DNA of 64,000 nt, taken from contig MU005972.1 in NCBI GenBank assembly GCA_010093745.1, positions 135,170 to 199,169 of the forward strand, written 5' to 3'. Shown in pieces: positions 1 to 63,996 of this stretch. The DNA is from Piedraia hortae CBS 480.64 (Eukaryota). Both the position numbers and the translations under genes were made by a program. Position 1 is the stretch's first letter. Each line of letters starts with the position of its first letter. The notes under the pieces are model-generated. The model did not search any database, had not been told where the DNA came from, and worked only from the letters and a program-made list of their open reading frames with translations.

Positions 1-203
1 TTGCAAGGCGATCCCGCCAAGGTGAGATCGGCCTTCAAGCCAGATGGAGTTTTGGCAACGTTGCTTGCCTTGTAACCAGGGCATGAGCTCAATGACCCTC
101 CATTTTCCCGACGCCAGACAACTACAGGAGTAGGACCTGCAGTGACAGTCCCTAGGAGAGGTGTCAACGCACACAAAGTGCCAAGTAACCTTGCTGTCAC
201 CAT
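1..203 (-). CDS. 5' end of a second (tandem paralogous) secreted GH31 alpha-glucosidase; runs off the window's left edge
   Basis: ATG at 203 gives [67 protein letters not shown]; nt 1-95 are identical to 6033-6127 of the full copy. Confidence 0.85.
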
Positions 204-775
204 CCCTTCAGTATTTCACGTAGTGATGCTCCTTTCAATAGGAGTCATCTGCTGATTACTTATGAGGAAATATGAGAGAAAGTGCTATGCCGAAGGGGAG
301 ACGGGGATTGTAAATAGCCATACTGCAAGCCATGACAACATGGCACGGTAGAACTCATTTGCAGCTCGGCGTAATTGTAGGCAAGGATGCAGTAAAGCCG
401 AGCAAAATCCTCCGACTGATCTTGGTGATCGGGCTATCGTTTGGCACGCCTCCCGTTAGACTTGGCAAATCATCATGTGAGGTTCAGGAACGGTCCCCGC
501 TTTCCATTAGCGCATCGGTGAAGGGCGTTCCCAATGCGGCAGTTCCAACGGTAGGCCCTTCTGGTGGGACGACGTTGGCCTGGCTGCATGTCCTTTCTTT
601 TGTTCCATCCTCGAAAGTTCTAGTGGGAATGGGTAGCGGGGTCAGAAATCTTGCAACAAGTTCCCCGCAACTTGGCGCGGGGAACTCTCGGGCCTACTAC
701 GCATGCCGAGTGGTCACCTGTGCAGGTCGGATGCAGGTCCAGTGACCATCACTTTATTCCGGTGTCTGGGGTAAC
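1..775. repeat. Tandem-duplication copy A (GH31 5' coding region plus promoter), homologous to about 6033-6870
   Basis: Direct sequence similarity at about 6.03-6.09 kb offset, including an identical 88-bp block 421-508 = 6466-6553. Confidence 0.9.
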
Positions 776-30472: not shown

Positions 30473-30642
30473 TTTAGATCATTGTACTGCGGCCGCCACG
30501 GGTCAGTTTTTCGAGCACAGACGAGCGGAGCACAACCTACCGAGGGAATCGGGTAAGCAAGGTGTCGAGTCGCTGTTGATCGGCCGAAAGGGGGAGCGGC
30601 CGCAACTTCCCCACATTCTGCCATCCGGCCGCTGGAAATCAA

Positions 30643-31521
30643 ATGTGCGGCTTCTGGGCCCTTTTGGAGCCCGGAGACGTTCGTGCGCAGAGACGCAACG
30701 GGAACCTAGAGTCACTGTCATGTCAGCTGTCACAGCCCTTGTCACAGCAGCCGCCTTCGCAGGCCCCTCACCCAAAACAGCCGCCAGACGGTCTCCTCTC
30801 CCCTGCGGCTCGCAGAGACAGACAAAACAACGCCTTCTACACTGGCGTCGCAGGAACCGTCTTCTCCGCGCTTCTCACGCGTCGCGTTATAAGGGCTAAG
30901 CGGTTGCCCTTTCCTTCCACTTCAACCTCCGGCGTCAATTCTGAGGCGCCCGGAGTTGGCGCAAGCAAAGCACACGTACCAAACATCAAAGTGCTTTCCG
31001 GTATAGATGCAATCCAGGCTCTGGGGCTGGCCACACTGAATGTTTGCTCAATAGCAACCCTCATTTTTGGCGCCGTCGCAAAGATCTTTGACCTAGCAGA
31101 AGTCGAAGACCTGCGACATCTCGTTCGCAGAGGCGTAGGGTACGATGTTTACGGAGGAGATGCGAAGGGGGATGAAGAGGTAGAGCAATGGTTGGAGAGT
31201 TTGCTAAAGGAAGGCGGGATATCAAAGGAAGGAATTGAGAGCAAATTGCGGGAGCTGGAACGGGAAGAGCGGAAGTCCAAAGGCGCTCCCAGCCCAGAAC
31301 CTGTACGGATAGTGGAGCAACTGCACCATTCAGAGACGGGGAAACTGCGACCCACCCAAGACTCGGCAAACCCATACGTTAACGGAACCAAAAAGTGGGA
31401 TGGGAGGACACTTTGCACAAGATGCGGCCAGGTAGGCCACACTGCCGTAAATTGCCTGTATGCCCCTCTCAAGGAGCGAGAACAGAGTATACTCAGACAG
31501 ATGGTGGAGAGGAGAAGGTGA
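30643..31521 (+). CDS. AIM11: AIM11-like mitochondrial membrane protein with C-terminal CCHC zinc knuckle
   Basis: AIQALGLATLNV..FDLAEVEDLR core; CTRCGQVGHTAVNC. Confidence 0.7.
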   Translation: MCGFWALLEPGDVRAQRRNGNLESLSCQLSQPLSQQPPSQAPHPKQPPDGLLSPAARRDRQNNAFYTGVAGTVFSALLTRRVIRAKRLPFPSTSTSGVNSEAPGVGASKAHVPNIKVLSGIDAIQALGLATLNVCSIATLIFGAVAKIFDLAEVEDLRHLVRRGVGYDVYGGDAKGDEEVEQWLESLLKEGGISKEGIESKLRELEREERKSKGAPSPEPVRIVEQLHHSETGKLRPTQDSANPYVNGTKKWDGRTLCTRCGQVGHTAVNCLYAPLKEREQSILRQMVERRR

Positions 31522-38993: not shown

Positions 38994-39676
38994 GTTTTGT
39001 TCATCAAGCGAGCGATTAGTCAGGATCTTTGACTTCTTACAAGGTTGCGGCTGATAGATGCAGGCAAACTCAAGAATGAGGCTATCCAACGTTTCGAAGG
39101 CGTCGTGGATGATGTCATTCTCCTGACTACACTCCTCTCAGCTTTGGTAGAACGCCACGTCAATCAACCCAATCGAACGATCAAGCAAGAAGTTTACTTA
39201 TTGATTCGAGACTGGGCATAGCTTTAGAAACCTATGCCCGTGTAGGAAGTTTGGATGGCAGCTCGCGATGGGAGGTCGACGGCATACATGCTTTCGGCCA
39301 TCAGACAACCTGAAAAGGCTCGAGTGGGATGATCTTCGTAGATGAAATGGGTCACAGGAAGAAATCAAAAAGTAAACGTGCTGATTTGCAGTAGTCATGA
39401 CCACCATAAAGGCTGTGTTTGACCAATCTCCTAAAAACACGGTAAAGGAGAATGACATAGCAAAGTGGGATGGCACCCGTCAATATTGGTCCTAGCGGGT
39501 AGCGAGTCTTGGCGGATTACGTTCACAATTGCATCTTTTATTTCGTCACTTTTGCAATCCCGCAGAAGTGCTGCCCACCTTCTCGCCTCCGCCCGACCAC
39601 GCTTGGCTATGCGGGGGGTTGTCACCACTTGAGCATTCACATCACTTGGTGACCTCTTCGGGTCAAGCCGCACCTA

Positions 39677-42097
39677 ATGCGGATTCGAGCAAGTTGGGAA
39701 TTCGGATGCTTAAACCCGTGCTGCGACGCTTCAACCTCCCCACCTCTAACATTGGGTCCGCCAACCCCGTCAAGCTCAGGCTCTGATAGCTCTTCTCACA
39801 CTAGTCCACCCTCAGCTGTTGGTCCACAGGTTCTGCCAGCCTGGGCGGAATTTGCTGACCACCTCGATTGCTACGTCGACGACATGGTGCATCGTCGCCA
39901 TCGAACCCGCAAGCCCGCCGCGGCTCTGCCCCAGGGCCGAATGCCGATCGGAACGTGGAATTCACACCCGGTTCGTTGCAGTGAAGATGGCCTCCGCCCT
40001 GGTAGCAGCTCCGCTGCTGCTCCTTCCGATAACGATGACAACACGTCTCTCTCTTCCTCGCCCGGCGGGGTGAGGCTTTGGAACGATCAGCCGGATGCGG
40101 CTGATGATCATGATGTCGGCTACCAGCAGATATCCTACCCGGTGAATCGCCTCCACGATGGATTGTCTCCAGTTTCGTTGGGGCACACGCCAGGCCTGCA
40201 TTCCGTCGCACAGGACGATGGCCCGGTGATCTATGGCAACAAGGTGGTAGGCCCAGAGTATGTCAAGGCCAAACATGGGAAAGCGAACGGCGAAGTGCAG
40301 TTCGCGGTCCATCGAAATGGTGACATTTCAGCACAGCAATGGTCCCAAGCTCGTGGACTCTGGGAGATCATTGGCCAATATTCCTACGCCCGACAGAGGA
40401 CAGAGGGCCAGCTTGCAGCTGACAGGCTGAAAGGCGAGACAACGGTTCACGCGCTCCAAAAGGATTCGTTTCCCTACTTTTGTGCCGTTGCTAAACAGCG
40501 CGAACTCGTTGCCTCTGGCAACACGTCACTGGATTTTACGGCACTGCTAGACGCTAGCTTGCACAAATACACCTACATGGAACCCTCAGGCAAGGAGGAG
40601 CCACATCCGCAGCCACTGGTGGGAAACCACGGAGCTGAGCGCCAGCGCTTCAACCAGTCTTCTGCGCAAGAATCTGTCGGAGCTTGGCGTCTGCCGATCC
40701 CGCAGCACAACCTCAGCAACTCATTCGCCTTTGCCAGTCGCTTCAACAATCCATATCCCAGCTCGGACTACGGCTATATGAATGGCACGATAGGGTATCA
40801 ACGAGAGACGCCGATATATGGTGATGCCGTTCCCGACTCAGCCGCCCGTTTGCGCTGCCAGGCGCCGGTGTGGATGAGTACCAACAGCAACTCGGCGTTC
40901 AATCCGCAAATGTTGTCGAACGTGCGTGGTGATATGGTGAAACACATTGCGGAACGGACGCACATGCGTTCTCACGGTTTGTTGGCAGAAGAGCAGCCCA
41001 AGACTTATAGTCAAAACATGCAGTCGCCCCTTGTTCTCATGGGGGAGTCTCCGAGCCGCAATTCTTCATACATTGCCACTCCGTTCCGCGGCCATCGCCC
41101 GGCGAATTTGTTCAGTGCTCAACAAGTGCCCGATCCATACGGCACCCCTCAGCACAACCAAGTCCAGTATGCACAAACGCCTAGCCCTATTGCATCGTTT
41201 AATCAGCAGGATCTCAAGAAAACGGTTGCTAATCCCAGCGGCGTTGTCCCGCCTCGCGAATATGGGAACGAATCGCAGTATCCTGTGCAGCACCACATGT
41301 ACACAGCCAGGAACATGGGAACAGGCCCGTTTGCTAACAAGAAGTCAAAGACTGTCGCAGAGATGGGAGTTGTGGGAGGGCATGTTTTTGTTACTAACCA
41401 GGGACGCACAACGGAACAGAAAGAGCCAGAGCCAAAAGTTGAGTTGATCAAGCCTTTTTCCAACGAACCGATTCGTACAATTGAGGAGCTTGATGATGAG
41501 TTGCTGCGTGGATGGAAGCCGAAAATTTCGCGCCACGATGACCCTCACTTGTGGAGCGAATTCCATGATAAGCTTGTGGCTGATTACAAGGCTGGGCTCC
41601 CAAAAGACCAGAAATATGAGAATTACGACCTTTTCAGTGCTGCATGTAGGAAGAAGACTTCTCAATGGCATGACAGCCTCTATGAGCGCGTCCTAGAGGG
41701 CGCGAAACTGATGGGAGATCATTCTGGGATCATCTATTTGCCTTCGGCAGAGAATGGCCGCGAGCCCGTGAGCGTTACGCGTTCGGTCCTGCCCTTCTTC
41801 GAGAATATGGTTCATTACCATGCCAAGATTCCTGGCTACGGTGATAACTGGGGCACGGCGCCACAGTGTGCCATTGATCTATCGCCAACCGGAAACCATT
41901 CATTTTTCGGAGACGCTGCTCAGAAGACAACGGATGTCAAGACTGATAATGGCCATCCTGAGGATGCGGGCGCTGAAGCGAATACGAGCATGGAAGATGC
42001 AGAGACCAAGGTTAACATGTGGCTCACGGGGACTCTAGGTGGTACTAAAAGCAAGGCTGCGATGGGTAAGGCCCCGAACAGACGTCAACGAGATTAA
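39677..42097 (+). CDS. Hypothetical low-complexity protein (true start possibly 39884)
   Basis: 806-codon ORF; no family recognised. Confidence 0.7.
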   Translation: MRIRASWEFGCLNPCCDASTSPPLTLGPPTPSSSGSDSSSHTSPPSAVGPQVLPAWAEFADHLDCYVDDMVHRRHRTRKPAAALPQGRMPIGTWNSHPVRCSEDGLRPGSSSAAAPSDNDDNTSLSSSPGGVRLWNDQPDAADDHDVGYQQISYPVNRLHDGLSPVSLGHTPGLHSVAQDDGPVIYGNKVVGPEYVKAKHGKANGEVQFAVHRNGDISAQQWSQARGLWEIIGQYSYARQRTEGQLAADRLKGETTVHALQKDSFPYFCAVAKQRELVASGNTSLDFTALLDASLHKYTYMEPSGKEEPHPQPLVGNHGAERQRFNQSSAQESVGAWRLPIPQHNLSNSFAFASRFNNPYPSSDYGYMNGTIGYQRETPIYGDAVPDSAARLRCQAPVWMSTNSNSAFNPQMLSNVRGDMVKHIAERTHMRSHGLLAEEQPKTYSQNMQSPLVLMGESPSRNSSYIATPFRGHRPANLFSAQQVPDPYGTPQHNQVQYAQTPSPIASFNQQDLKKTVANPSGVVPPREYGNESQYPVQHHMYTARNMGTGPFANKKSKTVAEMGVVGGHVFVTNQGRTTEQKEPEPKVELIKPFSNEPIRTIEELDDELLRGWKPKISRHDDPHLWSEFHDKLVADYKAGLPKDQKYENYDLFSAACRKKTSQWHDSLYERVLEGAKLMGDHSGIIYLPSAENGREPVSVTRSVLPFFENMVHYHAKIPGYGDNWGTAPQCAIDLSPTGNHSFFGDAAQKTTDVKTDNGHPEDAGAEANTSMEDAETKVNMWLTGTLGGTKSKAAMGKAPNRRQRD

Positions 42098-46472: not shown

Positions 46473-46811
46473 TTCCTTCATGCGAGGCTAAACAAAATGT
46501 TTTGTTGTATGTGTACTTTTATTAGAAAGGGGTGGTTAGATAGATGGGAATGGAAAGATGCTATGAGTTTCTCCGTTTATGAAGATACTTGCCTCTACTC
46601 GAGGTGCATGTGCTGCCTTTTTGCATTTGAGTGGGCACTTGTTTTTCGTCTTTCCCAAGCAGAATGGGTTAGTTAAGGCATACCATGAGAGTGAGTTTTG
46701 ACCACAACTTTTCCTTATAGTTACATATACGACTGGTTGAAAAAGTAGACACCGAAAGACGAAACGGATCTACTGTACACATTCTCGATGCCAGTACAAA
46801 GAGACATGTAA

Positions 46812-49800
46812 TTACCAGTTGACTGCAGTGTTGGTCGATGGCGACGCACCATTGTCCCAGCTGGTAGAGAATGCTTGCTGCTGAGGCAATGCCCAGCTTC
46901 CAGTGCTCGCGCCCGCGGTATTGTTTGCTGCCGAAGCCTGACTACTGCTCGCATTATTCCATCCTCCAGCAGCTGGGGTCATCTGGCCATTAGTGTTTCT
47001 TCTACGCATATCATCACCACCGTCAGCATTGCGTGCGGGAGCAGGGTGATTGTCAGAAGTATTGACCCAGCCGCTGGAAACAGTACGATTCCCCGAATTG
47101 TCCCAGCCGCCCCTGGCACTGTTGTTGCTTGAGACATTAGGCTCAGGGTTGGTTTCGTTCGGGGCATTGTTGTCCCAGCCGCTATTTGCTTTTGCAGCTG
47201 GCGGAGAGCTGTTCCATCCATTATTGGCCTGGGACGATGCAGCATTGCCATTGGAAGAGTTGTCCCTGCTGTTGTTTCCCTGGGACTTCGGAGTATTGTC
47301 CCATCCACCGCTCGCTTGTCGCGCAGTCTGGGCCGACGAAACGCTGTTACTCCATCCATAATTCGATTTGGGTGGTGCCGAGTCATTGACCCAGCCATTT
47401 CCTCCAGAGGGCTTGGCTTGGGCCGGGCTGTTTGCACTGTTGTCCCAGCCACCGCTCTGATTCGTCTGCGCCGCGCGATTATTGGAGGCAGACCAAGCGG
47501 AGGTGGCACTAGCAGGCTCATCGTTCCATCCGCCACCGGTATTACCAGAGGGTGAGGCTCCCCATCCACCGTTCCCATCAGTGCCTACTGAGGCACGGCC
47601 CTTGCTGCCCCTAGCGCTTCTGGCAGCTTTGAGAGCAAACCCGGGCGCTGCCGCATTTCGCGGATTGCCAGATCCCCAACCACTGAAACTCGGGGGAGCG
47701 CCACCATCCCAGTCGGCCGAGCGACTAACCTTCTGACCACCGGCGTGGCTCCGTTCGCTAACAGGTGCTTGCTTTGCAGGAGCGGCTGGCTGCGCAGTCG
47801 TCCCGCCAAAAGTAGTCGCGTTCATGCCCATCTTGTCCTGGGACTCCCAGCCATTAGCAACACCTCCGCTAGCAGTAGATCCTTGGGCATTCAATTCATT
47901 CGCAGTTCCTCCAGATATACCATTAGCTCCTCGTCCGCCATAACCGTTAGTAGTATTCTTGTTATCTGGCGCCTCCCAGCTTGCGGTTTCAGCCGCGCTC
48001 TTGGCGCTGGGTTCGGTGTTCCATCCACTAGCAACACCGATGTTTGAAGCCACGCTACCCCATCCGGTAGTAGCTCCTCCAGAGTTTTCCGTCTGAGGCG
48101 CCCACGCCAATGCCGGAGCAGGCTCAGCGCTTGTACTGGTACCCCATCCACCGTCAGCCGCCCCGCTGTTATCCCAGCCTCCAGTGGCCGCACCCCCAGT
48201 GCTACCGGCATCGACCCATCCACCCGTAGCAGCTGTGCCCGTGTTTCCAGCATCACCCCAACCACCGCTACCGGTATTACCATTATCACCAGTATCACCC
48301 CAACCGCCGGTCGTAGCCCCGCTGGTATTTCCTTCATTACCCCATCCTCCACCAGTGCCAGAATCTGCGCCCCACGAATTGTCTTGGTTCAACGGATCCG
48401 ATGTTTGCGGGGGACCATCGAAATCCTCAGCTTCTTCAAAGCCCGAAATCTCCAGGCTATCACGGTGGTTCAGCGGTGAAAACTTGCAATAGATCCTTCC
48501 ACCACGGAACGCACAATTGGCGTTTTGGCAAACATGCCCGAACTGACACTGCTGTCTTCGGCATCTGCCCTTTCGCTGGCAAGGTCTCGAGTAAAGGAAT
48601 TGCCTATGAGCGTTGGCAATGCCTTCAGGAACAGGCTCATGGGGAAGTCTTTAGCAGTAAGTCACAAAGTTCGACACGGAAAAGAGGACTTACGAGCAAT
48701 CGGCGTCGATACAGCGTCCCAGAGCAAGGAATGAGTTGCAAAAAGTCTTGTTGGCTCTGAAATCTTTATATGCTAGTGTATCCTGTATCGAAGGCGTTGG
48801 GAATAAGGGATCGAGCCGCCAGCCATTCATGTTGACGGGAATCTGGCCGGGGGCGATGCTATCAGGCGAGGGTAGCACTGACACATCATTCAGGGGGTTG
48901 TAAGTCTGCCTTTGACGCACATTAGGATCTACAGTGAACGGGTGTCCAGGGTCACTGGCCGAGCTGTCACTTTCATAGCCCTGAGCATTAGTATCAACCT
49001 ATATTCCATCAGTCTTCCATAGAGACGCCAAGATAATGGGTACATACCGCGACCGCAAAAGCTGAGGCTTGCGCTGGAACCTGAGCCTGAACAGAAGCCT
49101 GATAGGCCTGTTGCTGAGGTTCATAAGCCTGCCGCCGAGGGGGATGATAAGACTGTGGCGGAGGAGGCTGAGGAGCCTGCGATCGGGAGGCCTTATAGCC
49201 CGATGATTGGGGAACTTGGTAAGCTTGTTGAGGCTGGGCGGGCGGCTGCTGAGGAACTTGCTGTTGAGGAGCCTCCACTTGCTGAGGCAGAGCGTTCCAC
49301 GCCTGGCTGACGTCCGGTAAAGGCTTTTGAGCACTACCAGGCCCTGAGGCAGAAGTGAAGATGGGGGAGAAGTCCTCCGTTTCGAAACCGAGCTGAGAGT
49401 ACTGCGGCAGGCTTCCAGGAATGTTCATGAGCGTGATTTTCTTCAGATTGCCCCGGTTCGAAGTGATGGTGGGAATGTACTCTGGCTCCGTGCAGCCGCC
49501 AAAGAAGATGCGTCGGCACTGCGGAATACCTAGGAAATGCTGCACCAAGCCTGCAGTCTTGAAGACGGCAGCACCCTCAGAATCACCAACATGGACAAAG
49601 TCAAAGAGTTCATTGGATCGGGTGAAGTCGGCGGCAAAGGCGGCAACAGAGCGACCGCCTTTGTTGTTCCCCGTCATTCGATCGAAGCGGTTGGACAGAC
49701 GGGCAAGATTTGCGGATACTTTGACCATAATGGGGCAATCATCCAGGCCTTGTTTCTGTATGCTCTTCCTCACAGCATCGCGCAAGAGGGTTGCAGCTTG

Positions 49801-50055
49801 ACGGCCACCTTCAGCACCCATTCCTATCAGGTTATCATCGAAAGCATAAGAATCGCCGTCAATAGCAACCATGACAAATGGTTTCTGGTCTCCAGAAGCA
49901 TCGCTGTTGGTCTTCAGGATCTTGAGGAGCTGGTGCTCCTTCAAGAGAGCTTCAAACTGCTGCAACAGGGCATCGCGTTGCTGCTGGTGCTGTCCGTCTG
50001 CACGCTTGAAAGCGTCCAGAGAGGCGACGCAGTGCGCTACATCTACACCGGACAT
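46812..50055 (-). CDS. About 1049-aa protein: NYN/PIN-like (DUF7923-type) domain, tandem CCCH zinc fingers, GW/WG-repeat tail; introns 48999-49047 and 48649-48693
   Basis: Canonical GTATGT..TAG and GTAAGT..AAG introns join ORFs 49009-50055, 48690-48920 and 46812-48392 in frame (3150 nt CDS). Confidence 0.85.
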
Positions 50056-50266
50056 TGGTTAGTGACGGATACAAAATGGCAAAAACGAGTGTGGCTGAAT
50101 CTTTAGTAAAACGCCCAAAACTTCGCCCGTTGAACTGAGACGCGGGGCCATCCATGGGGCCCAAGTATCGCGGCGTTTGCGCTAACCATGGCCGTTTGCT
50201 GTGCGACCAATAGGAGCTGGAGGATCTACGGCTGTCTACATGTATGGCTCTGACAACACCGGGCAG

Positions 50267-51439
50267 CTAGTTTCGAGCCAACAACTTGTCAATTTCATCC
50301 ACAGTGAACCCTAGTACATGCATAACGTCTAATAGGGATGCAGTGTTTAGACGTGCCGGGGCTGCTGCTTGTACCTTGGGCTTGGCGTTGACCGCTATAC
50401 CCAGGCCAGCAGCACCCATCATCAGTAGGTCATTGCTCCCATCGCCTACAGCAATTGTACGTTCTAGAGGTATTTGGTTCTCCGCCGCCAGGCGAATCAA
50501 CAGTTCACGCTTCTTCTCCGCATGTACTATAGGAGCCGTGGGGAGCAGCTCGCCTGTTAGAACCTGCTCAATGTCGTCTTGAACAAGGTGATTGGCAAAA
50601 GCGTAATCCAGGCCAAGAACATCCTTGGCCCATTCTGCCAGTGGTGTGAAACCTCCACTTACCACGGCCGTCTTCCATCCTAAATTCTTGAGTACTTGAA
50701 CCAAGCCTTTAGCTCCGGGAGTAAAGGTGATGGGTCCGGCTTTCAACCGATCCCATATTGATAATGGCACCCCCTCGAGTAGGGCAACTCTAGCCCGTAG
50801 TGAGGCCTCAAAATCAGTATACGGGGCTTCACCTCTCATTGCAGCCTCGGTGATAGCAGACACAGCATCATATCGACCGACAGCACGCGCGAGCTCGTCT
50901 ATGACTTCTTGCTGGACTAATGTGCTGTCCATGTCAAAGACGGCCAAGCCTGGACTCTTGTGCTCGGCATAAAGTTGAGCAGGCTGCACGATAATTTGCA
51001 TGTTATGCACAATTTGCAAACCAACGATTGTGTCAACTTTTGTAAGATTCGTGCAGTCTTGTAGGGTAGCCGGTGGGCCGGCCAGCCCAATGACTACCTC
51101 GGAAACGCGGTTGGGTACCAGAAACCGACAGCTGACAATATCCTGCGAGGCCGAGCCCAACGACAGCGTGTTCAGGATGCTATCATGGACAGTCTGCCAT
51201 GTTTGATGCGATAGTTGATGCCTGGCAAATACGAGCCACACAATCTCGCCCATGGTATGGATCCAAGTTGGTTGTGCGTTGTGCATATATGGTAGGCGCC
51301 AAACGCCAAGAACTAATTTTCGAGCCCACATGGAGCTGTCAGTCAAGGTTTGGCTGATGGGCATTCTTCCAACTGCCACTAGCCAACCGTCATGCGGCAC
51401 GTGTTCTGTCGTTCCAGTTGGGCGATGGGAAGGCTGCAC
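50267..51439 (-). CDS. SER2: Phosphoserine phosphatase (HAD family); true start probably downstream (for example 51253)
   Basis: AVFDMDSTLVQQEVIDELA, ITEAAMRGE, VSGGF, AVGDGSNDL. Confidence 0.93.
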   Translation of the reverse strand: MQPSHRPTGTTEHVPHDGWLVAVGRMPISQTLTDSSMWARKLVLGVWRLPYMHNAQPTWIHTMGEIVWLVFARHQLSHQTWQTVHDSILNTLSLGSASQDIVSCRFLVPNRVSEVVIGLAGPPATLQDCTNLTKVDTIVGLQIVHNMQIIVQPAQLYAEHKSPGLAVFDMDSTLVQQEVIDELARAVGRYDAVSAITEAAMRGEAPYTDFEASLRARVALLEGVPLSIWDRLKAGPITFTPGAKGLVQVLKNLGWKTAVVSGGFTPLAEWAKDVLGLDYAFANHLVQDDIEQVLTGELLPTAPIVHAEKKRELLIRLAAENQIPLERTIAVGDGSNDLLMMGAAGLGIAVNAKPKVQAAAPARLNTASLLDVMHVLGFTVDEIDKLLARN

Positions 51440-51537
51440 GACTACGTCATCAACAAAGCTCTGACCATTCCGACGTTCCCGATGACTTAGCCATTGTTGT
51501 TGTAAACACCCTCGCTCTTTTCCTCGAACCTAGCAGC

Positions 51538-52346: not shown

Positions 52347-52529
52347 GATGAAAAAGAATTGATATGATAACCAGATAATTGACTAATGCACTGAGTGTTT
52401 TGCCCTCGCCCTGCCCCTCTGTGTCATTACCCCACCGGAGGAATTCCGTGTCTTCGCGACTCATTTATGATACGCGCAGCGGGGACGTTGCACTAAATTA
52501 GCGCCAGACACAGAGAAAAAACTTGGACA

Positions 52530-53357
52530 ATGTCAGAACCCAGCCAACGTAAACAAAAGAAAGCTCTACGCGATGCAGAGCGGCGGAAAACCAGATTGCG
52601 GCCAAGGAAAACAACACTTGTCGCAACTCCCGAAGATATCCCCGAGGCTGATGTTCACGATGTCTCTGAAGCAGGTGACGCGCGAAAAAGGCGCATAGAA
52701 GATGAAGCACGCGATGAAGTGGCAAACAAAAAATTGAAAACGTCGGGGCCCGAGTATAAGGATGCAGCGAAAGAGAAGAAGAGCAAAGGCGAGAAGCGCA
52801 AGGCAAGGAAGAAAGCTGTCGCGGAGAAGCGGATAATTGAAGAGGAGGAAGGCACAGGCAAGAGGCCCAAAACGACCAAAGAAAGCAAAGACCGTTTCAT
52901 CGTTTTTGTGGGGAACCTCCCGTTCAACACCACCGATGCTTCACTAGCAGCGTTCTTCCAGCCCTTGGCGCCAACATCAATCAGACACCGTACCGATCCC
53001 AAGACCAAGAAGAGCAAAGGGTTTGCCTTTGTCGAATTTGAAGGATATGACCGCCTCAAGACGTGTCTTCAAAAGTATCATCATGTCGAGTTCAATCCAG
53101 AAGAACACGGCGCAGAAGGAACGGGCAAGGGCGGCCGCAAAATTAATGTCGAGCTCTCTGCCGGCGGAGGTGGCAAGTCAAAGACACGAATGAGCAAGAT
53201 CAAGGCTAAGAACGAAAAGCTAACAGAAGAACGTTCAAGAAGGATACAGCGAGAGTTGCAGGAAAAGGCAGCAAAGACGACGGCGGATGCAGGGGAACCC
53301 AAAGGAGCTATCTCTGCTGTAAACGGCATGCATCCAAGTCGTCTGGCGAGAATGTAG
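52530..53357 (+). CDS. NOP6: Nucleolar RRM protein Nop6-like
   Basis: RFIVFVGNLPF, SKGFAFVEF, RKINVELSAGGGG, MHPSRL. Confidence 0.82.
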   Translation: MSEPSQRKQKKALRDAERRKTRLRPRKTTLVATPEDIPEADVHDVSEAGDARKRRIEDEARDEVANKKLKTSGPEYKDAAKEKKSKGEKRKARKKAVAEKRIIEEEEGTGKRPKTTKESKDRFIVFVGNLPFNTTDASLAAFFQPLAPTSIRHRTDPKTKKSKGFAFVEFEGYDRLKTCLQKYHHVEFNPEEHGAEGTGKGGRKINVELSAGGGGKSKTRMSKIKAKNEKLTEERSRRIQRELQEKAAKTTADAGEPKGAISAVNGMHPSRLARM

Positions 53358-53785: not shown

Positions 53786-54228
53786 TGTTAGATAAGAGGG
53801 GTGAGATGTTTAACTAGCCTCTTTGGGATAGCAATGACAGATATTAGGGTTAGGGATATCATCAGTCAGCCCAGTATCGGGCTACGGATGATTGACGTAC
53901 ATTACCGGGGAAGGCAAGGGTTCAAATTAATCACGTCAACGGTAAGACTACAGCAAGATGTCTTGCCCTGACACACTGTCCGCTATGACAAATGAGACCA
54001 GTAAGAACAGAGATAAGCTGTGCAACGAAGAGGGAAGTCGCATGGCAAGGCGTGGGGCGGGAAACCCCAGCCACCGCTCGCAGTCTGCAAAAAAAGCGGG
54101 ACGGACCACAACGGCCCGCACACATGAAACGGACCGCCCGCCCCGCCCACTCGGGACGCACTGAACAAGTCCCAGCCTCTCCCGTGCTCCTTGGCTTCCG
54201 TCATGGGAGACTCTGAACAACATGAGAT

Positions 54229-56040
54229 TTGACCACATTGCTGCCCCCACGCTCCGCCATCACTCACTGCTTGCTCGGCCGTGAGCTTTCGCCGTGTGGC
54301 CTATGTGACTCGCTAGACGCAGCCCTGTCGCCCCTATATTATTCGGACGGCAGCGACGACTCGGACGGCCGGTGCCAGGGCAATTGCTGCGTAGCGCGGA
54401 CGCACCGGCCTGAGTCATCTCCCGGCACTCACGCCGCCGTCCTATACGCCGTTGAGGAGGGCTTCCGCTTCCCGCATACACTGACCCCCGATCTGGACGA
54501 GGAAAATTCGCAAATGTCCGAAGTTGGCGCGCGCGCAACGCACACCGGAGCGCGTCCTGGCGGCCCCGTGCCCATTTCTGCTGCTGCTCCAAGCATTCGC
54601 ACACCCCGTGACGTGATGCGAGAGCGGAATGCGCGTGAAGCGCGTCGTTTCCAGGCACAACGAGAGGAAGAAGCGCGACGGCATGTGGCGCTTAGCAGCG
54701 AGGATGGCTTGGCGCGTGACGGCTCAGTCCGCGTCTCGGGGGCCGAAGCGCTTGGGGAACCCGTAAGCAGAAGTCAAGGTACCCAGAACTACGCGTCTAA
54801 CAGCCGTCCCCGTCGCATTTCTGGTGCCTCCGGCGGTAAGCATGCTCCGCAAAATCATGTTGCAACATCGTTTCCACTTGCATTCGAGCGTTGGGAGACA
54901 CTGTCGTCACACTGGGAAGGGCTGACGTCGTACTGGTTACACAAATTGGAGCAGAACACGGAAGAAATCAGGCACACGGTGCCCAACGTGTCGAGCTTGA
55001 ACAGGCAAATCACGGATCTTTCGGCCGCTGGGGCTAATCTCTTCCACGCCGTTGTTGAACTGCAACGGCTCCGGGCCAGCAGCGAACGCAAATTCCAGCG
55101 TTGGTTCTTTGATACCCGCGCCGAGACGGAGCGGAATGCTGAGAGGCAGGCTGAACTCGAGCGGCAACTGCAGCTCGAGCGCGGAGCGCACGAGGAGGCG
55201 GCGTCAAGGAAAGCCGATGCAGAAGCCGCTGCCAGCCAAGCCGACCGGGAGCTGCGAGAGCTGCGACGAGAGCTCATCATTGCTAAAGAAGAAGCCCGGC
55301 GTGCGTGGGAGGAGCTAGGCAAACGCAATGACGAGGCCCTGCAGCAAGCGGAAAACCTCAAGAGCGGCTGCGTAGCTGTAGTTGCCGGCGTGCAGGTGGT
55401 ACCCTACGTTTCTCGTGTTAGCCGCAGCGGCACCGTTGCCAGTGCTGTGCGTCCAGACGTTACGAGCAGCCCAGGAGAGCGTCACTACGAACGCTATGCC
55501 AGCCCAACTAACACAGATCCCTTTGCCGAGCTGGCCAGGCAAACTGTACCGCAGACGCCGCCATGGTCAGCCGAGCGTCGGGCCGGTGTGAGGTCGCCAG
55601 CATCGTCAGCCTACACTCAGCCACACTACGCCACTGACGGGACTCCAACGCACGTGCAGCCCAACGTCATGGTGACTTCGCCCACAGCATCGCCTCATAC
55701 TCGCAGCGAAGGACGTCAGGAGGGTCCTTTTACTATGGGCAGCGAGGCCGAAACTGTCTATGCCATTGACTCGGCCGGACAGCTCCAATCGCCACCCGCA
55801 GCCATAACGAGGGACACAGAGGACACGCAAATTAGCGAGAGTGGCTATTCGGACTACGGGTCTCTGCCTACTCTACCGGCAACAAGTGCAGAAGCAATGG
55901 CAACCTTCACGCCATCGTCCGGGCCTGACGACTTTGCTGACTGGGATACCGCTGGGGCCACAACCCACCATCACCCAACTCGACTGAGCGATGTTTTGGA
56001 AGAGGACGAAGAACGCAGCAGTAGACGCACTGCTGAGTAA
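54229..56040 (+). CDS. Fungal coiled-coil hypothetical protein (start uncertain)
   Basis: 603-codon ORF with SFPLAFERWETLSSHWEGLTSYW, coiled coil and HHHPTRLSDVLEEDE tail. Confidence 0.75.
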   Translation: MTTLLPPRSAITHCLLGRELSPCGLCDSLDAALSPLYYSDGSDDSDGRCQGNCCVARTHRPESSPGTHAAVLYAVEEGFRFPHTLTPDLDEENSQMSEVGARATHTGARPGGPVPISAAAPSIRTPRDVMRERNAREARRFQAQREEEARRHVALSSEDGLARDGSVRVSGAEALGEPVSRSQGTQNYASNSRPRRISGASGGKHAPQNHVATSFPLAFERWETLSSHWEGLTSYWLHKLEQNTEEIRHTVPNVSSLNRQITDLSAAGANLFHAVVELQRLRASSERKFQRWFFDTRAETERNAERQAELERQLQLERGAHEEAASRKADAEAAASQADRELRELRRELIIAKEEARRAWEELGKRNDEALQQAENLKSGCVAVVAGVQVVPYVSRVSRSGTVASAVRPDVTSSPGERHYERYASPTNTDPFAELARQTVPQTPPWSAERRAGVRSPASSAYTQPHYATDGTPTHVQPNVMVTSPTASPHTRSEGRQEGPFTMGSEAETVYAIDSAGQLQSPPAAITRDTEDTQISESGYSDYGSLPTLPATSAEAMATFTPSSGPDDFADWDTAGATTHHHPTRLSDVLEEDEERSSRRTAE

Positions 56041-57408: not shown

Positions 57409-58557
57409 CTAATCACCCGTCCATCTTGTCAAGATGGTCAGGATTTGCTTCCATCTCTCTATCACAATCTCTCTCGCTCCCTTTGATTCCAACATGCTCA
57501 CTTTTTCCCAACCATGCTTGACAAAGTCCGTAGTCAAGTGCTTCGCAAATTTTACAACTTTAGACTCCAGAGCAGCATTCAAATCCTCACCAGTTTGCAT
57601 AAAATGGCCCCATTCCTCATCATTTTTACTCAGCTCTGCGCGAAGAGCAACCTGGGCGCGGAAGCACAGCTCCCATCTCATTTCTGTGGTGGGCAAAAGA
57701 ACATACGACCCCAAAAACCCGACCATTTGCAGAGCATCCCTAGTTTCAGACCTTAGATGCGGCAGCAGAAATTGATCAAGCACAACGTTATCATCATAAC
57801 TTCCTGATGGAATGATGAACCCATAATGCACCAGAAGGAAGTCGTTCGAATGGGAGCCGTATGTAGCTAGGACTTCTTCTCCAACATCTTTTTGCATACG
57901 TACACGATTAGAAAAGGACGAAAAGCTACGAACGTAGGGGCACGAAAACTCCTTACCATAGTCACGCGTCGCGAGAACTCGATAGCCGTCTTTGCCTTGC
58001 GACACGGCCACCGCAGAGGGCGTCTGTCCTGCTGGTGAATGGTTGATGTAGTCAGTCACCGGACAGAGAACCATGTCCTTCTTTCCCAGGTGGAAACTCC
58101 GGGTGTTGACAATCGCCCAGGCGTAGTCCCAGTCGTTGTTTAGCACGTCAATACCAGCTGCAGCTGCATCTTTGGTGTCTCTCTCGTAGCCTCGCTGCTG
58201 TCGTTGCAAAACTGCGCGTGTAGCATCTGGCAACTGTTCCTGCCCCTCTGCCAGCCAAAACAAAGGTAGACTTGCCAGCAAATTGGCTTTTGCTGGCCAT
58301 GTACGAGTCCAGGCTTCATCTGGAGGAGATATGATGATCGAAGCTGCGAGCTGGGCCTGTGGTGAGGCTTCTTTGGCTAGAGGTTTTTGACTAGAGAACA
58401 TGGCACTTGAAGGGACATGTAGGATCTGATCACCTTTCTTGATAGGGCCAGTGGTAACGAGGCCAATTCCATGATCAGGAATATGTTCAGGATGCACTGC
58501 ATGCAGTTTTACAGATTGAGCAGAGGCCCATGCTAAAAATTCTTTGTGGATATCCAT
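57409..58557 (-). CDS. SET-domain lysine methyltransferase (Rkm/SETD-type); in-frame intron 57888-57956
   Basis: GIGLV, AWAIVNTRSF, LCPVTDYINHS, GEEVLATYGSHSNDFLLVHYGF. Confidence 0.88.
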   Translation of the reverse strand: MDIHKEFLAWASAQSVKLHAVHPEHIPDHGIGLVTTGPIKKGDQILHVPSSAMFSSQKPLAKEASPQAQLAASIIISPPDEAWTRTWPAKANLLASLPLFWLAEGQEQLPDATRAVLQRQQRGYERDTKDAAAAGIDVLNNDWDYAWAIVNTRSFHLGKKDMVLCPVTDYINHSPAGQTPSAVAVSQGKDGYRVLATRDYGKEFSCPYVRSFSSFSNRVRMQKDVGEEVLATYGSHSNDFLLVHYGFIIPSGSYDDNVVLDQFLLPHLRSETRDALQMVGFLGSYVLLPTTEMRWELCFRAQVALRAELSKNDEEWGHFMQTGEDLNAALESKVVKFAKHLTTDFVKHGWEKVSMLESKGAREIVIERWKQILTILTRWTGD

Positions 58558-58629
58558 TTGTCTGTGTTTGTGTTGGAGGAGCCCCGCAGATTTTTCTCTT
58601 CGGTGACATTCCGCACAAACACATACACC

Positions 58630-59079
58630 ATGAACACAACAGCACAAATGCGCGAATGTGCAGACGACCTGCGCGACAAGATCGATGCGTTGGAGGCTGC
58701 ATTTGCGCCGATACTTAAAGCGGGTATAAGTGGCAGCGCAAGCAAATTACCTCTGATGGATCAGGCCCAACTGTACACGTTGACGACGTATGCCATTGAA
58801 TCGCTTTTGTTCTCTGCAATACGTCTGGACGGAAGCGAGGATGCAAAGAAACATCCAGTCTTTCAGGAATTGAATCGTGTAAAGGGCTACTTTGCGAAAA
58901 TCAAGGCCGCCCAGACGACGGCAGAGGGAAAGCGATCTAGAGTTGATGTGGAGGCCGTTGATAGGATGATCAAGCACGGGACAGAAAGTGTGAAAAAGCT
59001 ACAACATGGGCCACCCATGAGGGAGAGGAAGAGGAAAAGGGCAGAGGGCAAGGATGAGGTAAATAAAAAGCAAAAGTAG
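58630..59079 (+). CDS. LRP1: Exosome cofactor C1D/Rrp47 (Sas10/Utp3/C1D family)
   Basis: LPLMDQAQLY...YAIESLLFS..HPVFQELNRVKGYFAKI..AVDRMIKH. Confidence 0.85.
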   Translation: MNTTAQMRECADDLRDKIDALEAAFAPILKAGISGSASKLPLMDQAQLYTLTTYAIESLLFSAIRLDGSEDAKKHPVFQELNRVKGYFAKIKAAQTTAEGKRSRVDVEAVDRMIKHGTESVKKLQHGPPMRERKRKRAEGKDEVNKKQK

Positions 59080-60560: not shown

Positions 60561-61844
60561 TCAATTTTCGCCAAATAAATCCTCACCGACTTCCAGAGCG
60601 GGCAAATCCTCCTGGCTCGCACCAGGTGGTTGAGTAGGGATATCCTCCACTTTATCCAAAACGCCAGGTCCCAACGGAACAATATTCTCCTGTGCTGGAT
60701 CTGAAACGGACACGTGCACGTCCATTGGGACGGGATCAATACCCAATTTATCAGGTACGTCTGTTCCGTCGTCAGGCTGGACGGTATCGTCCTTTTGATC
60801 CACCTGCTGGATGAGGGGTTCATCCGGTGAACTGCTGATTCGTCTCATCCCACGACGGGACGGGGTCCCGGACTTCACGGTTGCCGTCTCCACGCCCGCA
60901 GTGGAATCTTCTGAGTCGCTCTCGCCGCTCTCTTGTTGCTGCAGAGCGGCCTGCTCCGGGGTCACGTCCACGGGTATTTCCTCGCCCTTGGACACATGTT
61001 TGACCGTTTGGCCGGGCTGTGGGACAATCTTGGTTGCGTTGGGGACGATAGTCGTGTATGTTGAGCCGTCTGGGTTGATGAACGTGACTCTCTTCTTGCC
61101 GCGACCGGGCCCACCTTTCTTCTTCGGCGGAGGCCGGTTCTTCCGCCTTGTTTCAGCTACAATGACGATGCCGTCTTCGTTGGCGATTCCTAGGCCTTCT
61201 ACATATGTTCCAGGTGGCGCCGTTAGAGCGGGAGGGAGCTCGGCAAGCTCGGCAGCATCGGTAATCTCCCCTTCGGCCAATTGTCCTTGTGGCACCAGAG
61301 CTTCGTAGACCAGAACCTCGCCGTCGTGTGCTGTCTTGCGCACCTTCGCCCGACGCATGGGCGCCACGCCGTCGGCGCCCGCCGGTCCGTAGAGGCTGGG
61401 CATGCCTTTTCTTCGCCGCGCGAGGAACTCAAAGTGCTTGTGCTCGGGCTTTTGAAGGGCCGTAGGGGTTATTTTCCACCTGCGTGTCAGGAAGGCGCGG
61501 TTATTGTTTTCCTTGGCCGCCTCATCCTCCTCAGCCGCATCTTCTTCGTCCGCGCAGTCGGTTTTGCGCTTGGCTCCGCTGCTGCCGGTGCGTCCGGTGC
61601 GTCCGGTGCGGGCAAGGCGCAAAATGTGCTGCGTCCATGGCTGCAACAGCTGGTAGTCTTGTGGCATTGGCAGCTCCCCCCATCGGTCGTCTTTGCCGTC
61701 GCTGCTGCCCAACGCCGGCGCAGCCAGCGATACTCGCGTCTCTTGTCGGCTCCATTGCTTCACTGGAAGTCCCTCAAACACCTCGTTGTTGGTTTGGTTG
61801 CGACCCGTTCGGTTGCTCCGTCCCGGTGGTCTGTAGTGGTCCAT
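60561..61844 (-). CDS. Fungal hypothetical protein (probably nuclear)
   Basis: 427-codon ORF; FEGLPVKQW, ELPMPQD..LL, EFLARRRKGMP, KGGPGRGKKRV. Confidence 0.75.
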   Translation of the reverse strand: MDHYRPPGRSNRTGRNQTNNEVFEGLPVKQWSRQETRVSLAAPALGSSDGKDDRWGELPMPQDYQLLQPWTQHILRLARTGRTGRTGSSGAKRKTDCADEEDAAEEDEAAKENNNRAFLTRRWKITPTALQKPEHKHFEFLARRRKGMPSLYGPAGADGVAPMRRAKVRKTAHDGEVLVYEALVPQGQLAEGEITDAAELAELPPALTAPPGTYVEGLGIANEDGIVIVAETRRKNRPPPKKKGGPGRGKKRVTFINPDGSTYTTIVPNATKIVPQPGQTVKHVSKGEEIPVDVTPEQAALQQQESGESDSEDSTAGVETATVKSGTPSRRGMRRISSSPDEPLIQQVDQKDDTVQPDDGTDVPDKLGIDPVPMDVHVSVSDPAQENIVPLGPGVLDKVEDIPTQPPGASQEDLPALEVGEDLFGEN

Positions 61845-61959
61845 GGCTGGTGAAATATCGATGCTAAACTTTTGGATGTCTCGATTAGGGTTAGCACTTC
61901 ACCAGCACTTCACAAGCACTTTCATTGACAGCTGGGGGACCGCGCCCAAGCCCCACCAC

Positions 61960-62396
61960 ATGGCTCAATTCAGAGCGAAGAAGCTCGACCTGGGCTGTTT
62001 TATCAATGCTCGTGTCATTCGCGACCATACTAAGCGAAAGGTGTTTGAGCAGCAGGAGCCGGAGCGGTACATATAAGTAAATATCCCATTGAACGCATCT
62101 GATTCGCAACAGTCAAGCCCTGCGCTATATCATACGCAACCTATCCCTTCCTGCGCGCACAAGAGCCCAGGCCCAGCTCCAGCTAGCGCAGATGCATAGC
62201 TACACGCGATCGACCCAGATCAACAACAGATGTGCAGAAGGTGGCAAGGCGAGATGGGTTATTGGGGATTACAGGATAGCAAGGGTAAGTGTGCATCATT
62301 ACGAAACTTGGGAGGGAAGGCTGAATGAGGCAGTATCCTTTCCGTTTAAAAGCACTTGCGGGTCAGCTGCCGGGGGTGCAAAAGGCGATGTGGTAA
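61960..62396 (+). CDS. MRP2: Mitochondrial ribosomal protein S14 (uS14m), two introns
   Basis: FRAKKLDL..IRDHTKRK..ER|QALRY..AQLQL..TQINNRC..R|YPFR..ALAGQLPGVQKAMW. Confidence 0.92.
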
Positions 62397-62536
62397 CCAG
62401 CGCCTTCTCAAAAGCTTGAACAAAAGCTTGGGCAAGGCAGTATGTAGTCACACGCACCTGTACATCACGCAAGATCAAAGCTCTCCATTTTCCAATGTTT
62501 GCTTTCATGCCGTTTATGCACAGACCTTTGGCACGC

Positions 62537-62537
62537 A

Positions 62538-62588
<51 letters not shown>

Positions 62589-62599
62589 ACAACACACAC
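62537..62599. repeat. (CA)n microsatellite
   Basis: About 17 perfect CA units with degenerate flanks. Confidence 0.95.
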
Positions 62600-62631
62600 T
62601 CGAAATTTTCCAATCCAACTCACCCACAACA

Positions 62632-63996
62632 ATGGCTTTTAGGAGATTGTCCACAGACCTCCCCAAGGATCCCGTCTATCCCGCCGATCTTAAAGAGCTG
62701 GGATTCAAGCAAACTGACGACGGTCATTTTGTGAACATTGAAACCGGCGAATACTTTGCTTATCGTCATACAAACAATGACCGCGCCAACGAAGTCCGCC
62801 GGGAGGCCATGACTCAATGCATTCGTTCTGCTGTTTTTGAAGCCCTCAAGGAGTTTGACATCAAACCTCTCTACTGTCATGGAGATACGTATAGCGAAAC
62901 GGCGGATGGACCAGCCGTACCCATCCTGACCACCTCCCGTCAGTCTTTGAAGGCGAAGCGGGAGGTTGTCATGCTTGTGGGAGAATATAACCACGATCTT
63001 GGCATCTTTGCCTACCGTTTGCTAATGAACGAAGGTGGAATGGAAGAAGGCTCGGTTATTGGTCTGTTAAAACAGCTACAGACGCTGGCCCGCCCCCCCG
63101 GTGTTATCATCTTCAACCCGGGCCAGCTGCTCTACAGTCACAAGGAGAAGCAGGCCATGTCACAGACCTCTTGGCTCGCTCGCAACAAGGAAAGTGCTTT
63201 GCATGAGCATTACCGCATTCACCCGGTGCACAACTACGTTACTGGACACACCACGCCCAATGAACATGTAGCTACTGTTTTAAAGTATGTTGTTCCGGAG
63301 ATCACGCACGAAGGTGCCAAACTTTACACCATCGCCATCAGTGACGGCTGCGAGAACATGCTAAAGGCCATCGATGTGCAGCTGGAAGAAGATAGCGACG
63401 CATGGATCGGAGGCGCCGTGGAGGCCTTTGCACTTATGCAGACTACTCATCGCCCGCACGAGATCAAGAACGCAGCCCTTCGCATGTTTCTCAACCTACG
63501 TGGACGCGGCTGGGTGACGGCTCTCGACGTTCCGCCTGGCAAACTCATCGCCCTGCCCGATGAGGAAGAAGTCCAAAATGCGGTTCGAGCCGTGGACGGT
63601 AAGGCTGGGTCGACCTCTCCCAGTAGGGATAAGCAGAAGCCTCGCATCGACCGTCGTGGAAGTGTCAGCGCCACTTCACCGCCTATCGCCATCCCAGGCA
63701 CGTCGGGAGCCGACGATGATGCCTCCACCGATGATGAGACAGTCAAACGCATCGCCGAGCAACGTGGTAAGGATAACGATCTTATCACTAAACACACGCG
63801 CGGCAGTTTGTTATACAGGCTACGAAAGATCAATATAGTGCCGTGCACGACACCCGAATTTGCCAAGAGCGAGTATGCAGAGGTGGGCGTAAACTGTCCG
63901 ACCATCAGCAGTGATGCCGATTTGATCGAGCTTGTCTTCCCCGCCGCCAGGGACGAAGTCATGAAGTTTTTCCGTGCTGTCAGGGATTCGGGCTAG
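62632..63996 (+). CDS. arb2: Arb2-domain protein (Argonaute siRNA chaperone complex subunit-like)
   Basis: MAFRRLSTDLPKDPVYPADLKELGF..NDRANEVRREAM..DLGIFAYR..PGVIIFNPGQL..HTTPNEHV match my recollection of fungal Arb2-domain proteins. Confidence 0.78.
   Translation: MAFRRLSTDLPKDPVYPADLKELGFKQTDDGHFVNIETGEYFAYRHTNNDRANEVRREAMTQCIRSAVFEALKEFDIKPLYCHGDTYSETADGPAVPILTTSRQSLKAKREVVMLVGEYNHDLGIFAYRLLMNEGGMEEGSVIGLLKQLQTLARPPGVIIFNPGQLLYSHKEKQAMSQTSWLARNKESALHEHYRIHPVHNYVTGHTTPNEHVATVLKYVVPEITHEGAKLYTIAISDGCENMLKAIDVQLEEDSDAWIGGAVEAFALMQTTHRPHEIKNAALRMFLNLRGRGWVTALDVPPGKLIALPDEEEVQNAVRAVDGKAGSTSPSRDKQKPRIDRRGSVSATSPPIAIPGTSGADDDASTDDETVKRIAEQRGKDNDLITKHTRGSLLYRLRKINIVPCTTPEFAKSEYAEVGVNCPTISSDADLIELVFPAARDEVMKFFRAVRDSG

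Follow-up and report, generated by a model that had tools for sequence, protein, structure and literature searches.

A spliced gene of Piedraia hortae joins an NYN-like domain and CCCH fingers to a tryptophan-rich GW tail

Three stop-free open reading frames (ORFs) follow one another on the minus strand of a 64,000-nucleotide stretch of Piedraia hortae CBS 480.64 DNA (assembly GCA_010093745.1, contig MU005972.1, positions 135,170 to 199,169), at 49009-50058, 48690-48998 and 46812-48650. This whole stretch is referred to as the window, and all coordinates are given within it. The locus raises the question of whether the three fragments form one gene and, if so, what might be done by a protein that ends in a long tail of glycine-tryptophan (GW) repeats. 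A first-pass annotation had read them as a single hidden gene, encoding an NYN-like domain, CCCH zinc fingers and a GW/WG tail proposed to bind Argonaute, and had known of no characterised fungal protein built in this way. Our analysis showed that the gene is real, spliced and expressed, and that its product, referred to as the window protein, belongs to the DUF7923-CCCH family. We propose that it is a post-transcriptional regulator, an adaptor acting via its Trp-motif tail, and we put the probability of this mechanism as a whole at roughly one in two.

Joining the exons by their coordinates gave a coding sequence (46812..50055, minus strand) that runs from the ATG at 50055, the earliest in-frame ATG downstream of a TAA, to the stop codon at 46812. 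It comprises three exons on the minus strand (50055-49048, 48998-48694 and 48648-46812, the last including the stop; 3150 nt in total) and encodes 1049 residues plus the stop, which bears out the earlier proposal that two introns join the ORF fragments into a frame of about this length. Intron 1 (48999..49047, minus strand) is 49 nt long and reads GTATGT..ATATAG, and intron 2 (48649..48693, minus strand) is 45 nt long, reads GTAAGT..TAAAG and splits a Ser codon inside the first CCCH finger (finger A). Transcript evidence was taken from a public run, X1, which contains 95% of the words sampled from the window and whose contigs were aligned to 46700-50200; the label of X1 as RNA is a guess, and the contig depths, being uninformative on expression level, were not used. 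Record 6 of X1 (3997 letters) omits 45 nt at the join 48648|48694 and 49 nt at the join 48996|49046, the latter cut corresponding, when moved by +2, to 48999-49047. Exactly the two predicted introns are thus missing from this contig, and both omitted pieces carry CT..AC ends on the plus strand, i.e. GT..AG on the strand of the gene. As both skips have these ends, the contig was taken to represent a spliced transcript, although a DNA copy that lacks the introns is formally still conceivable. An alternative acceptor CAG lies 18 nt further on, and was set aside since it is not the junction seen in record 6; an alternative isoform is still conceivable.

Apart from the two introns, record 6 is continuous from 50200 to 48298 (residue 555), and it therefore links exon 1, a linker rich in Q and P, all three fingers and the first three Trp residues of the tail in one molecule. 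Record 1 (5659 letters) spans 46700-48175 with no joint, and together records 6, 2-5 and 1 cover the tail jointless. Record 1 extends past 46700 and record 6 past 50200; since both overrun the locus, adjacent transcripts, or 3' ends that overlap, are fused in these contigs.

The only public model of the gene is a protein of 429 residues (P0001, 'hypothetical protein K470DRAFT_245428, partial [Piedraia hortae CBS 480.64]'), which is 100% identical to the window protein across the first 240 residues. It then jumps from '...VEAPQQQ' to 'GYESDSS...', so that the Q/P linker is removed, and its C-terminus '...RDSLEI' corresponds to residue 505 of the 1049-residue model, so that the tail is absent. 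Record 6 shows no joint at 48447 and does not skip the large first intron that P0001 assumes. As 620 of the 1049 residues, including the whole tail, are missing from the public model, it was fair to describe the gene as hidden. The intron-less contig corrects this annotation, in which 429 of the 1049 residues are retained and the part that most sets the protein apart is left out.

That part is the GW-repeat tail (residues 500-1049, 550 residues; 46815..48464, minus strand), whose final residue is W. It is built largely from G (95), A (83), S (75), N (64), T (43), P (32) and D (29), which together make up 421 of the 550 residues; Trp accounts for 29 residues (5.3%), and the remaining aromatics are 6 F and 2 Y. 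Our recount gave 29 Trp with 22 next to Gly, in line with the 29 and about 22 in GW/WG context reported earlier, and this number is far above that of shuffled tails (10000 shuffles; mean 9.2, standard deviation 2.4, none reaching 22). The gaps between successive Trp residues range from a minimum of 10 to 46 residues, and 21 of the 28 measure 10-18; among 20000 random Trp placements, none had a minimum gap of at least 10 and none had at least 21 gaps of 10-18. The first and most regular array (residues 530-662; 47976..48374, minus strand) holds 11 Trp at gaps of 10-15, mostly as GGWG or GGWD. At the DNA level, Tandem Repeats Finder reported in the tail one weak repeat alone (9 nt x 3.3, at 48270-48299). 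A Trp repeat that is kept in the protein with almost no tandem repeat in the DNA argues for selection and against recent slippage. For comparison, the window's 24 further long ORFs contained 1.46% Trp, of which 19% were Gly-adjacent; a CAP59-type mannosyltransferase ORF among them reached 5.1% Trp, but with only 3 of its 22 Trp beside Gly. The ESM Atlas returned no usable match with the tail as query, and a Pfam search of exon 3 at E≤1 gave nothing but zf-CCCH_tandem.

Sticker-and-spacer models of disordered regions expect evenly spaced aromatics. The tail might accordingly be such a region, which drives partition into P-bodies (processing bodies), stress granules or other condensates and has no specific pocket-bearing partner. 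The low-complexity composition described above, with Trp as almost the sole aromatic, the regular Trp spacing and the presence of a Q/P-rich linker elsewhere in the protein would all fit this explanation. The preference for Gly beside Trp (22 of 29 against 9.2 expected) is not needed for stickers; it is a hallmark of pocket-binding GW motifs, and we consider partition with no specific partner to be unlikely. The alternatives weighed here overlap in part with the proposed mechanism, and GW182 itself both condenses and binds pockets, so that the sticker and docking readings are compatible.

The N-terminal part of the protein was identified through its domain family. In the predicted structure a long helix (residues 6-53; 49897..50040, minus strand; block pLDDT, the predicted local distance difference test score, 94-96), which possibly forms a coiled coil, precedes DUF7923 (Pfam PF25540; residues 56-233; 49357..49890, minus strand), for which an NYN/PIN-like alpha/beta fold is predicted. 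The match to PF25540 scored 150.1 bits against a cut-off of 24.5 (E 7.6e-44) and covered positions 2-185 of the 185 in the profile. A phmmer search with residues 1-240 against 1.84 billion representatives (clustered at 50% identity) gave 697 matches at E≤0.001, of which 208 remained at 1e-10 and 22 at 1e-30, and the best match other than the protein itself had 41% identity. Neither the whole of exon 1 nor its residues 1-240 showed a homologue at E≤0.001 among longer proteins, and a comparison of exon 3 with proteins of similar length found P0001 itself alone, with no close orthologue or named relative.

For further comparison, residues 1-240 were aligned with 80 of the 149 other listed representatives (alignment A1, n=81), which were mostly higher-ranked and matched over most of the domain; most proteins above 700 residues were left out. 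Pfam found DUF7923 in 81 of these 81 proteins, zf-CCCH_tandem in 52, zf-CCCH_12 in 49 and zf-CCCH in 48, while the ESM Atlas clusters that matched the domain were all named DUF7923 and came mostly from Ascomycota. The combination of an NYN-like domain with CCCH fingers is therefore not unique: it corresponds to DUF7923 with zf-CCCH_12 and zf-CCCH_tandem, in a family of 697 representatives found mostly in Ascomycota. DUF7923 with CCCH is an Ascomycota-wide, uncharacterised family, and only the extreme GW tail is peculiar to the window protein. Our literature search found no paper naming DUF7923, PF25540, PF25543 or zf-CCCH_tandem, so that a large family with no literature under its Pfam names receives a predicted fold here.

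The structure of the N-terminal region was predicted by AlphaFold with alignment A1 (pLDDT 92.1; predicted template modelling score, pTM, 0.76), and this model, in which the long helix is followed by alternating strands and helices, replaced a single-sequence model with a pLDDT of 44.5. Foldseek gave no match in the PDB at E≤0.001. With the model of DUF7923 as query, VIA-align against 48,161 PDB representatives identified the NYN domain of mouse MARF1 (5yaa_A; Z 14.8, root mean square deviation 2.7 Å over 146 of 150 residues), that of human MARF1 (6fdl_B; Z 14.6, in a second look) and the bacterial protein VPA0982 (2qip_A; Z 12.3). The next rows, at Z≤7.9, were Pol I 5'-nuclease, ExoIX, Rae1/YacP and T4 RNase H, followed by unrelated Rossmann-like folds. 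The likeness to the two MARF1 structures and VPA0982 extends over 144-146 residues at 2.6-3.8 Å, but with a sequence identity of only 9-11%. A PDB sequence search with the N-terminal domain reached a best E of 0.89, and a profile search returned only CCCH and coiled-coil matches and no NYN chain. Similarly, no NYN family was present among the Pfam matches of the protein (E≤1) or among the 25 most frequent of the 75 families in its 81 relatives. On the strength of the model, DUF7923 has an NYN (PIN-like) nuclease fold, and the 'NYN-like' label of the first-pass annotation was thus apt at the level of the fold, with no match at that of the sequence.

A shared fold leaves the state of the active site to be considered. 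In MARF1, D178, D215 and D272 lie at the C-terminal ends of beta1, beta2 and beta4 and D246 at the N-terminus of alpha3, and each of the four Asp residues is required, such that a single Asp-to-Ala change abolishes cleavage (PMC6217404). These residues were mapped from offsets in the aligned ranges (model 57..234, chain 169..317) together with secondary structure, and not by residue-level superposition, which placed D178 at D66, D246 at V164, D272 at E190 and, most parsimoniously, D215 at N116. In alignment A1, column 66 is Asp in 74 of 81 sequences, and D66 is kept in the window protein; column 116 is Asn in 70 and Asp in 10 of 81, and the window protein has N116. Asp occupies column 155, where beta3 ends, in 76 of 81 sequences, but the window protein has H155 and also departs from the family at column 164 (Asp in 52 and Glu in 4 of 81; V164) and column 190 (Asp in 69 of 81; E190). 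Whereas 46 of the 81 members have Asp at all four of columns 66, 155, 164 and 190, and 10 rows have two or fewer acidic residues there, the D,H,V,E pattern of the window protein is unique among the rows. Two residues of the family motifs, K160 and H189, are also altered, to E and T.

By the offset mapping, the window protein lacks the full catalytic Asp set of the MARF1 type and keeps only the first residue, D66. With H155, V164 and E190 at positions that are usually Asp in its relatives, the protein is probably not an active nuclease, and it probably shares the NYN nuclease fold but not its chemistry. The earlier term 'effector' is accordingly doubtful if read as a nuclease, given that family-conserved acidic residues are lost in this member. 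The protein could instead be an active endoribonuclease resembling Regnase or MARF1, to which the fingers bring substrates and in which the tail modulates localisation or stability alone. This would agree with the fold match, with the retention of D66 and D68, with an N116 that is typical of the family, with the conservative nature of E190, and with the fact that the family as a whole looks catalytic, as judged from the 46 members with Asp in four columns. The replacements at columns 155 and 164, the changes of K160 and H189, and the loss of MARF1 cleavage after one Asp-to-Ala change (PMC6217404) speak against it, and we regard an active enzyme as distinctly unlikely.

Between the NYN-like domain and the tail, the first-pass annotation had quoted CCCH strings, which we found at residues 423-441, 461-476 and 478-499. 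Finger A (residues 423-441; 48639..48740, minus strand) has the spacing C-x8-C-x4-C-x3-H and is split by intron 2. Fingers B (461-476, C-x5-C-x4-C-x3-H) and C (478-499, irregular) are encoded at 48465..48581 (minus strand), and together they matched Pfam zf-CCCH_tandem (PF25543; residues 15-63 of exon 3, E 2.8e-09, 37.3 bits with the cut-off at 24). The exon 2 piece (101 residues) had no Pfam match at E≤1; finger A fits the family consensus CN...L...C....C..DH, and all three fingers and the N-terminal helix align with the consensus. The family profile matches solved RNA-binding CCCH structures, namely KIAA1064 (1.4e-06) and TTP (5e-04), and more weakly CPSF30, Roquin, MBNL and RBM22. As judged by these matches, three CCCH fingers of a predicted RNA-binding type follow the NYN-like domain.

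Upstream of the fingers lies the linker rich in Q, P and A (residues 239-336, 98 residues; 49048..49341, minus strand). Over residues 240-336 it contains 25 Q, 18 P and 17 A in 97 residues, and it is not spliced out, since record 6 is unbroken over 49046-50200. According to the family consensus, the linker occupies the position of the zf-CCCH_12 finger of most relatives. The window protein thus resembles its family in DUF7923 (150 bits) and zf-CCCH_tandem (37 bits), but differs from it by this linker in place of zf-CCCH_12 (present in 49 of 81 members), by H, V and E at three mostly-Asp columns, and by a tail of 550 residues with 29 W.

Regnase-1/ZC3H12A is an animal NYN/PIN-like nuclease that works with CCCH fingers. 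The logic of a PIN-like nuclease fold placed beside CCCH RNA recognition is shared by Regnase-1 and by KHNYN, which works with ZAP (PMC6615859). Those are active nucleases and have no GW tail, unlike the window protein, and the likeness is one of design. MARF1 differs in that its NYN domain, with four essential Asp residues (PMC6217404), is paired with RRM (RNA recognition motif) and LOTUS domains and not with CCCH fingers and a GW tail. The predicted NYN fold beside CCCH fingers makes the family a fungal design counterpart to Regnase and KHNYN-ZAP, and it marks the family as a candidate group of mRNA-decay factors.

In the mechanism that we propose, the fingers, perhaps with the NYN-like domain, would select RNAs, and the degenerate NYN-like site would make the protein an adaptor and not a nuclease. 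The tail would serve as a multivalent platform of Trp motifs, whose Trp side chains would enter Trp-binding pockets of the silencing or decay machinery. Once docked, it would bring the bound RNAs to repression or decay. The protein may therefore work by analogy with an Argonaute ('Ago') hook or with a Ccr4-Not adaptor, and two possible partners were compared.

Tas3 and Wag1/CnjB are GW-type Argonaute binders, and about 10 residues between Trp residues are needed for tandem pockets. The composition and GW density of the window tail fit GW-repeat Argonaute-binding regions, with many GW/WG motifs in a disordered region rich in G, S and N, as in GW182/TNRC6, the plant proteins NRPE1 and SPT5L, S. 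pombe Tas3 and Gwo1. The GW/WG domains of NRPE1, SPT5L and GW182 bind AGO (PMC2910046), and Gwo1, a fungal GW protein of Cryptococcus, binds Ago1 and affects small interfering RNA production and silencing (PMC10402008, citing Dumesic 2013). In the portions of the literature examined, none of GW182, NRPE1, SPT5L, Tas3 and Gwo1 was described with an NYN-like domain and CCCH fingers. Our literature searches showed no GW-type Argonaute partner of filamentous fungi and no NYN-CCCH-GW architecture among the matches listed, and none of the papers found joined Piedraia hortae with Argonaute. Argonaute as the tail partner, through an Ago hook of the GW182/Tas3/Gwo1 type, is favoured by the GW density and the Gly context, and by analogy we hold it as a tentative possibility. 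If the tail does bind Argonaute, the protein would provide a GW-type effector for filamentous fungi.

The silencing domain of GW182/TNRC6 is defined by UBA, PAM2 and RRM modules, but Pfam found none of them in exon 3 of the window gene at E≤1. Recruitment of Ccr4-Not through Not9 is a rival that the first-pass annotation left unconsidered. Not9/CNOT9 has two Trp pockets that are conserved throughout eukaryotes; disordered regions of RNA adaptors dock there, as the DFW motif of Puf3 does (PMC12819147, which cites Chen 2014, Mathys 2014 and Bulbrook 2018 for GW182 and TTP). In Drosophila GW182, the GW repeats likewise serve as effector motifs (PMC2965232). TTP/Zfs1, Puf3, Roquin and Unkempt, which recruit Ccr4-Not by disordered regions and partly via these Not9 pockets, likewise join an RNA-binding module to a disordered region with Trp motifs (PMC12819147), but with one or few motifs each, against 29 in the window tail. 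Moreover, the window fingers are not the tandem C-x8-C-x5-C-x3-H fingers of TTP/Zfs1, and PF00642 had no match at E≤1. As the defining modules were not found by Pfam, the window protein belongs, by its domain content, to neither the GW182 nor the TTP family.

Docking on the Not9 subunit of Ccr4-Not, a route also taken by TTP, Puf3 and the silencing domain of GW182, is favoured by the CCCH-adaptor context and by its independence from RNA interference; again by analogy, it is possible to much the same limited degree as docking on Argonaute. Were Not9 the partner, the tail would represent an extreme and multivalent form of Ccr4-Not recruitment by Trp motifs. The two partners are not mutually exclusive. 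A slightly more doubtful extension is that the protein could be a functional GW182 analogue of a filamentous ascomycete, in which a CCCH scaffold with a nuclease-dead NYN domain and a 29-Trp tail would bind several Argonautes and perhaps Ccr4-Not. Such an analogue, if real, would link targeting by small RNAs with the sequence-specific recognition of RNA and with decay.

Conservation of the tail was assessed among 150 listed representatives of the 697, in which fingers were located by regular expression. At least one CCCH finger was found in 113 of the 150, and 16 of these 113 had at least 150 residues after the last finger; the usual tails, as given on the tree labels, measure from tens to about 130 residues. 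Trp reached at least 2.9% in 7 of the 16 long-tailed relatives, with a GW context in P0032, P0005 and P0061. The tails of P0012, P0055 and P0082 carry instead 'EWxP' runs and 'F[AD]DDWG', unlike the GGWG/GGWD of the window protein; this Trp motif theme recurs in the family. A FastTree tree was built from 127 domain rows, after the removal of 23 of the 150, whose match covered fewer than 140 profile positions, and with the full window protein standing in for P0001. The window protein was placed on a long end branch (0.88) and within no supported clade. Trp motifs in tails thus recur across the family, while the 29-Trp GW tail has no counterpart among the 150 representatives compared.

Several of these observations weigh against the adaptor mechanism. 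The tail is common to no relative among the 150, the richest being P0032 (12 W, 7 GW) and P0061 (13 W, 7 GW), and the Trp-bearing tails are scattered over the tree; as none is shared, conservation cannot support function. In 25 of the 81 sequences of A1 the residue at column 164 is not acidic, so that this position may not be essential, and the correspondence of H155, V164 and E190 to the catalytic Asp residues of MARF1 comes from offset and secondary structure and not from residue-level superposition. Finally, among the contigs listed, none bridges 48175-48298 alone, where the pieces are short and the tail is at its most repetitive. The mRNA is taken to be continuous there on account of the open frame, which is free of internal stops over 612 codons, against 5-50 stops in the other five frames. 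The gene models of the relatives may be truncated in the manner of P0001, which makes the comparison of tails weak in either direction.

The tail might also be a low-complexity expansion that is confined to one lineage, largely neutral and devoid of any function itself, in keeping with its absence from the relatives, the unsupported placement of the protein on its long branch, and an existing gene model that stops before the tail. Neutral expansion would leave unaccounted for an open frame of 612 codons beside frames with 5-50 stops, and 29 residues of a single-codon amino acid (5.3%) with non-random neighbours and spacing; the scarcity of repetition in the DNA and the X1 contigs that cross the tail jointless also count against it, and we consider it very unlikely. 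The gene anatomy is solid and unusual, and the GW tail is so far a single-lineage feature.

Other ORFs of the window were also annotated. A stand-alone ORF of at least 548 residues (62350-63996, plus strand), which leaves the window end, carries the Pfam domain Arb2 (PF22749; E 1e-42, residues 110-390). The domain takes its name from the S. pombe Argonaute-binding protein 2, but it also occurs in Hda1-type deacetylases, and the ORF is therefore no evidence of RNA interference. Long ORFs (313-814 residues) with no Pfam match at E≤1e-5 lie at 39653-42097 (plus), 54226-56040 (plus) and 57409-58746 (minus), and further ones at 60561-61898 (minus), 29501-30478 (minus) and 30580-31521 (plus); two of them, both of 445 residues (57409-58746 and 60561-61898), are not related to each other (E 0.17). 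Some 2.4 kb upstream of the GW gene is an RRM-domain ORF (PF00076, E 4.7e-15; 52497-53357, plus strand), which shows no sign of a functional link to it. A HAD/phosphoserine-phosphatase-like gene (50267-51529, minus strand) is located between the two. On the other side, a gene for a Sec2p/Rabin8-type guanine nucleotide exchange factor (PF06428, PF25555; 44268-46472, plus strand) converges on the GW gene, with 340 nt between the stop codons.

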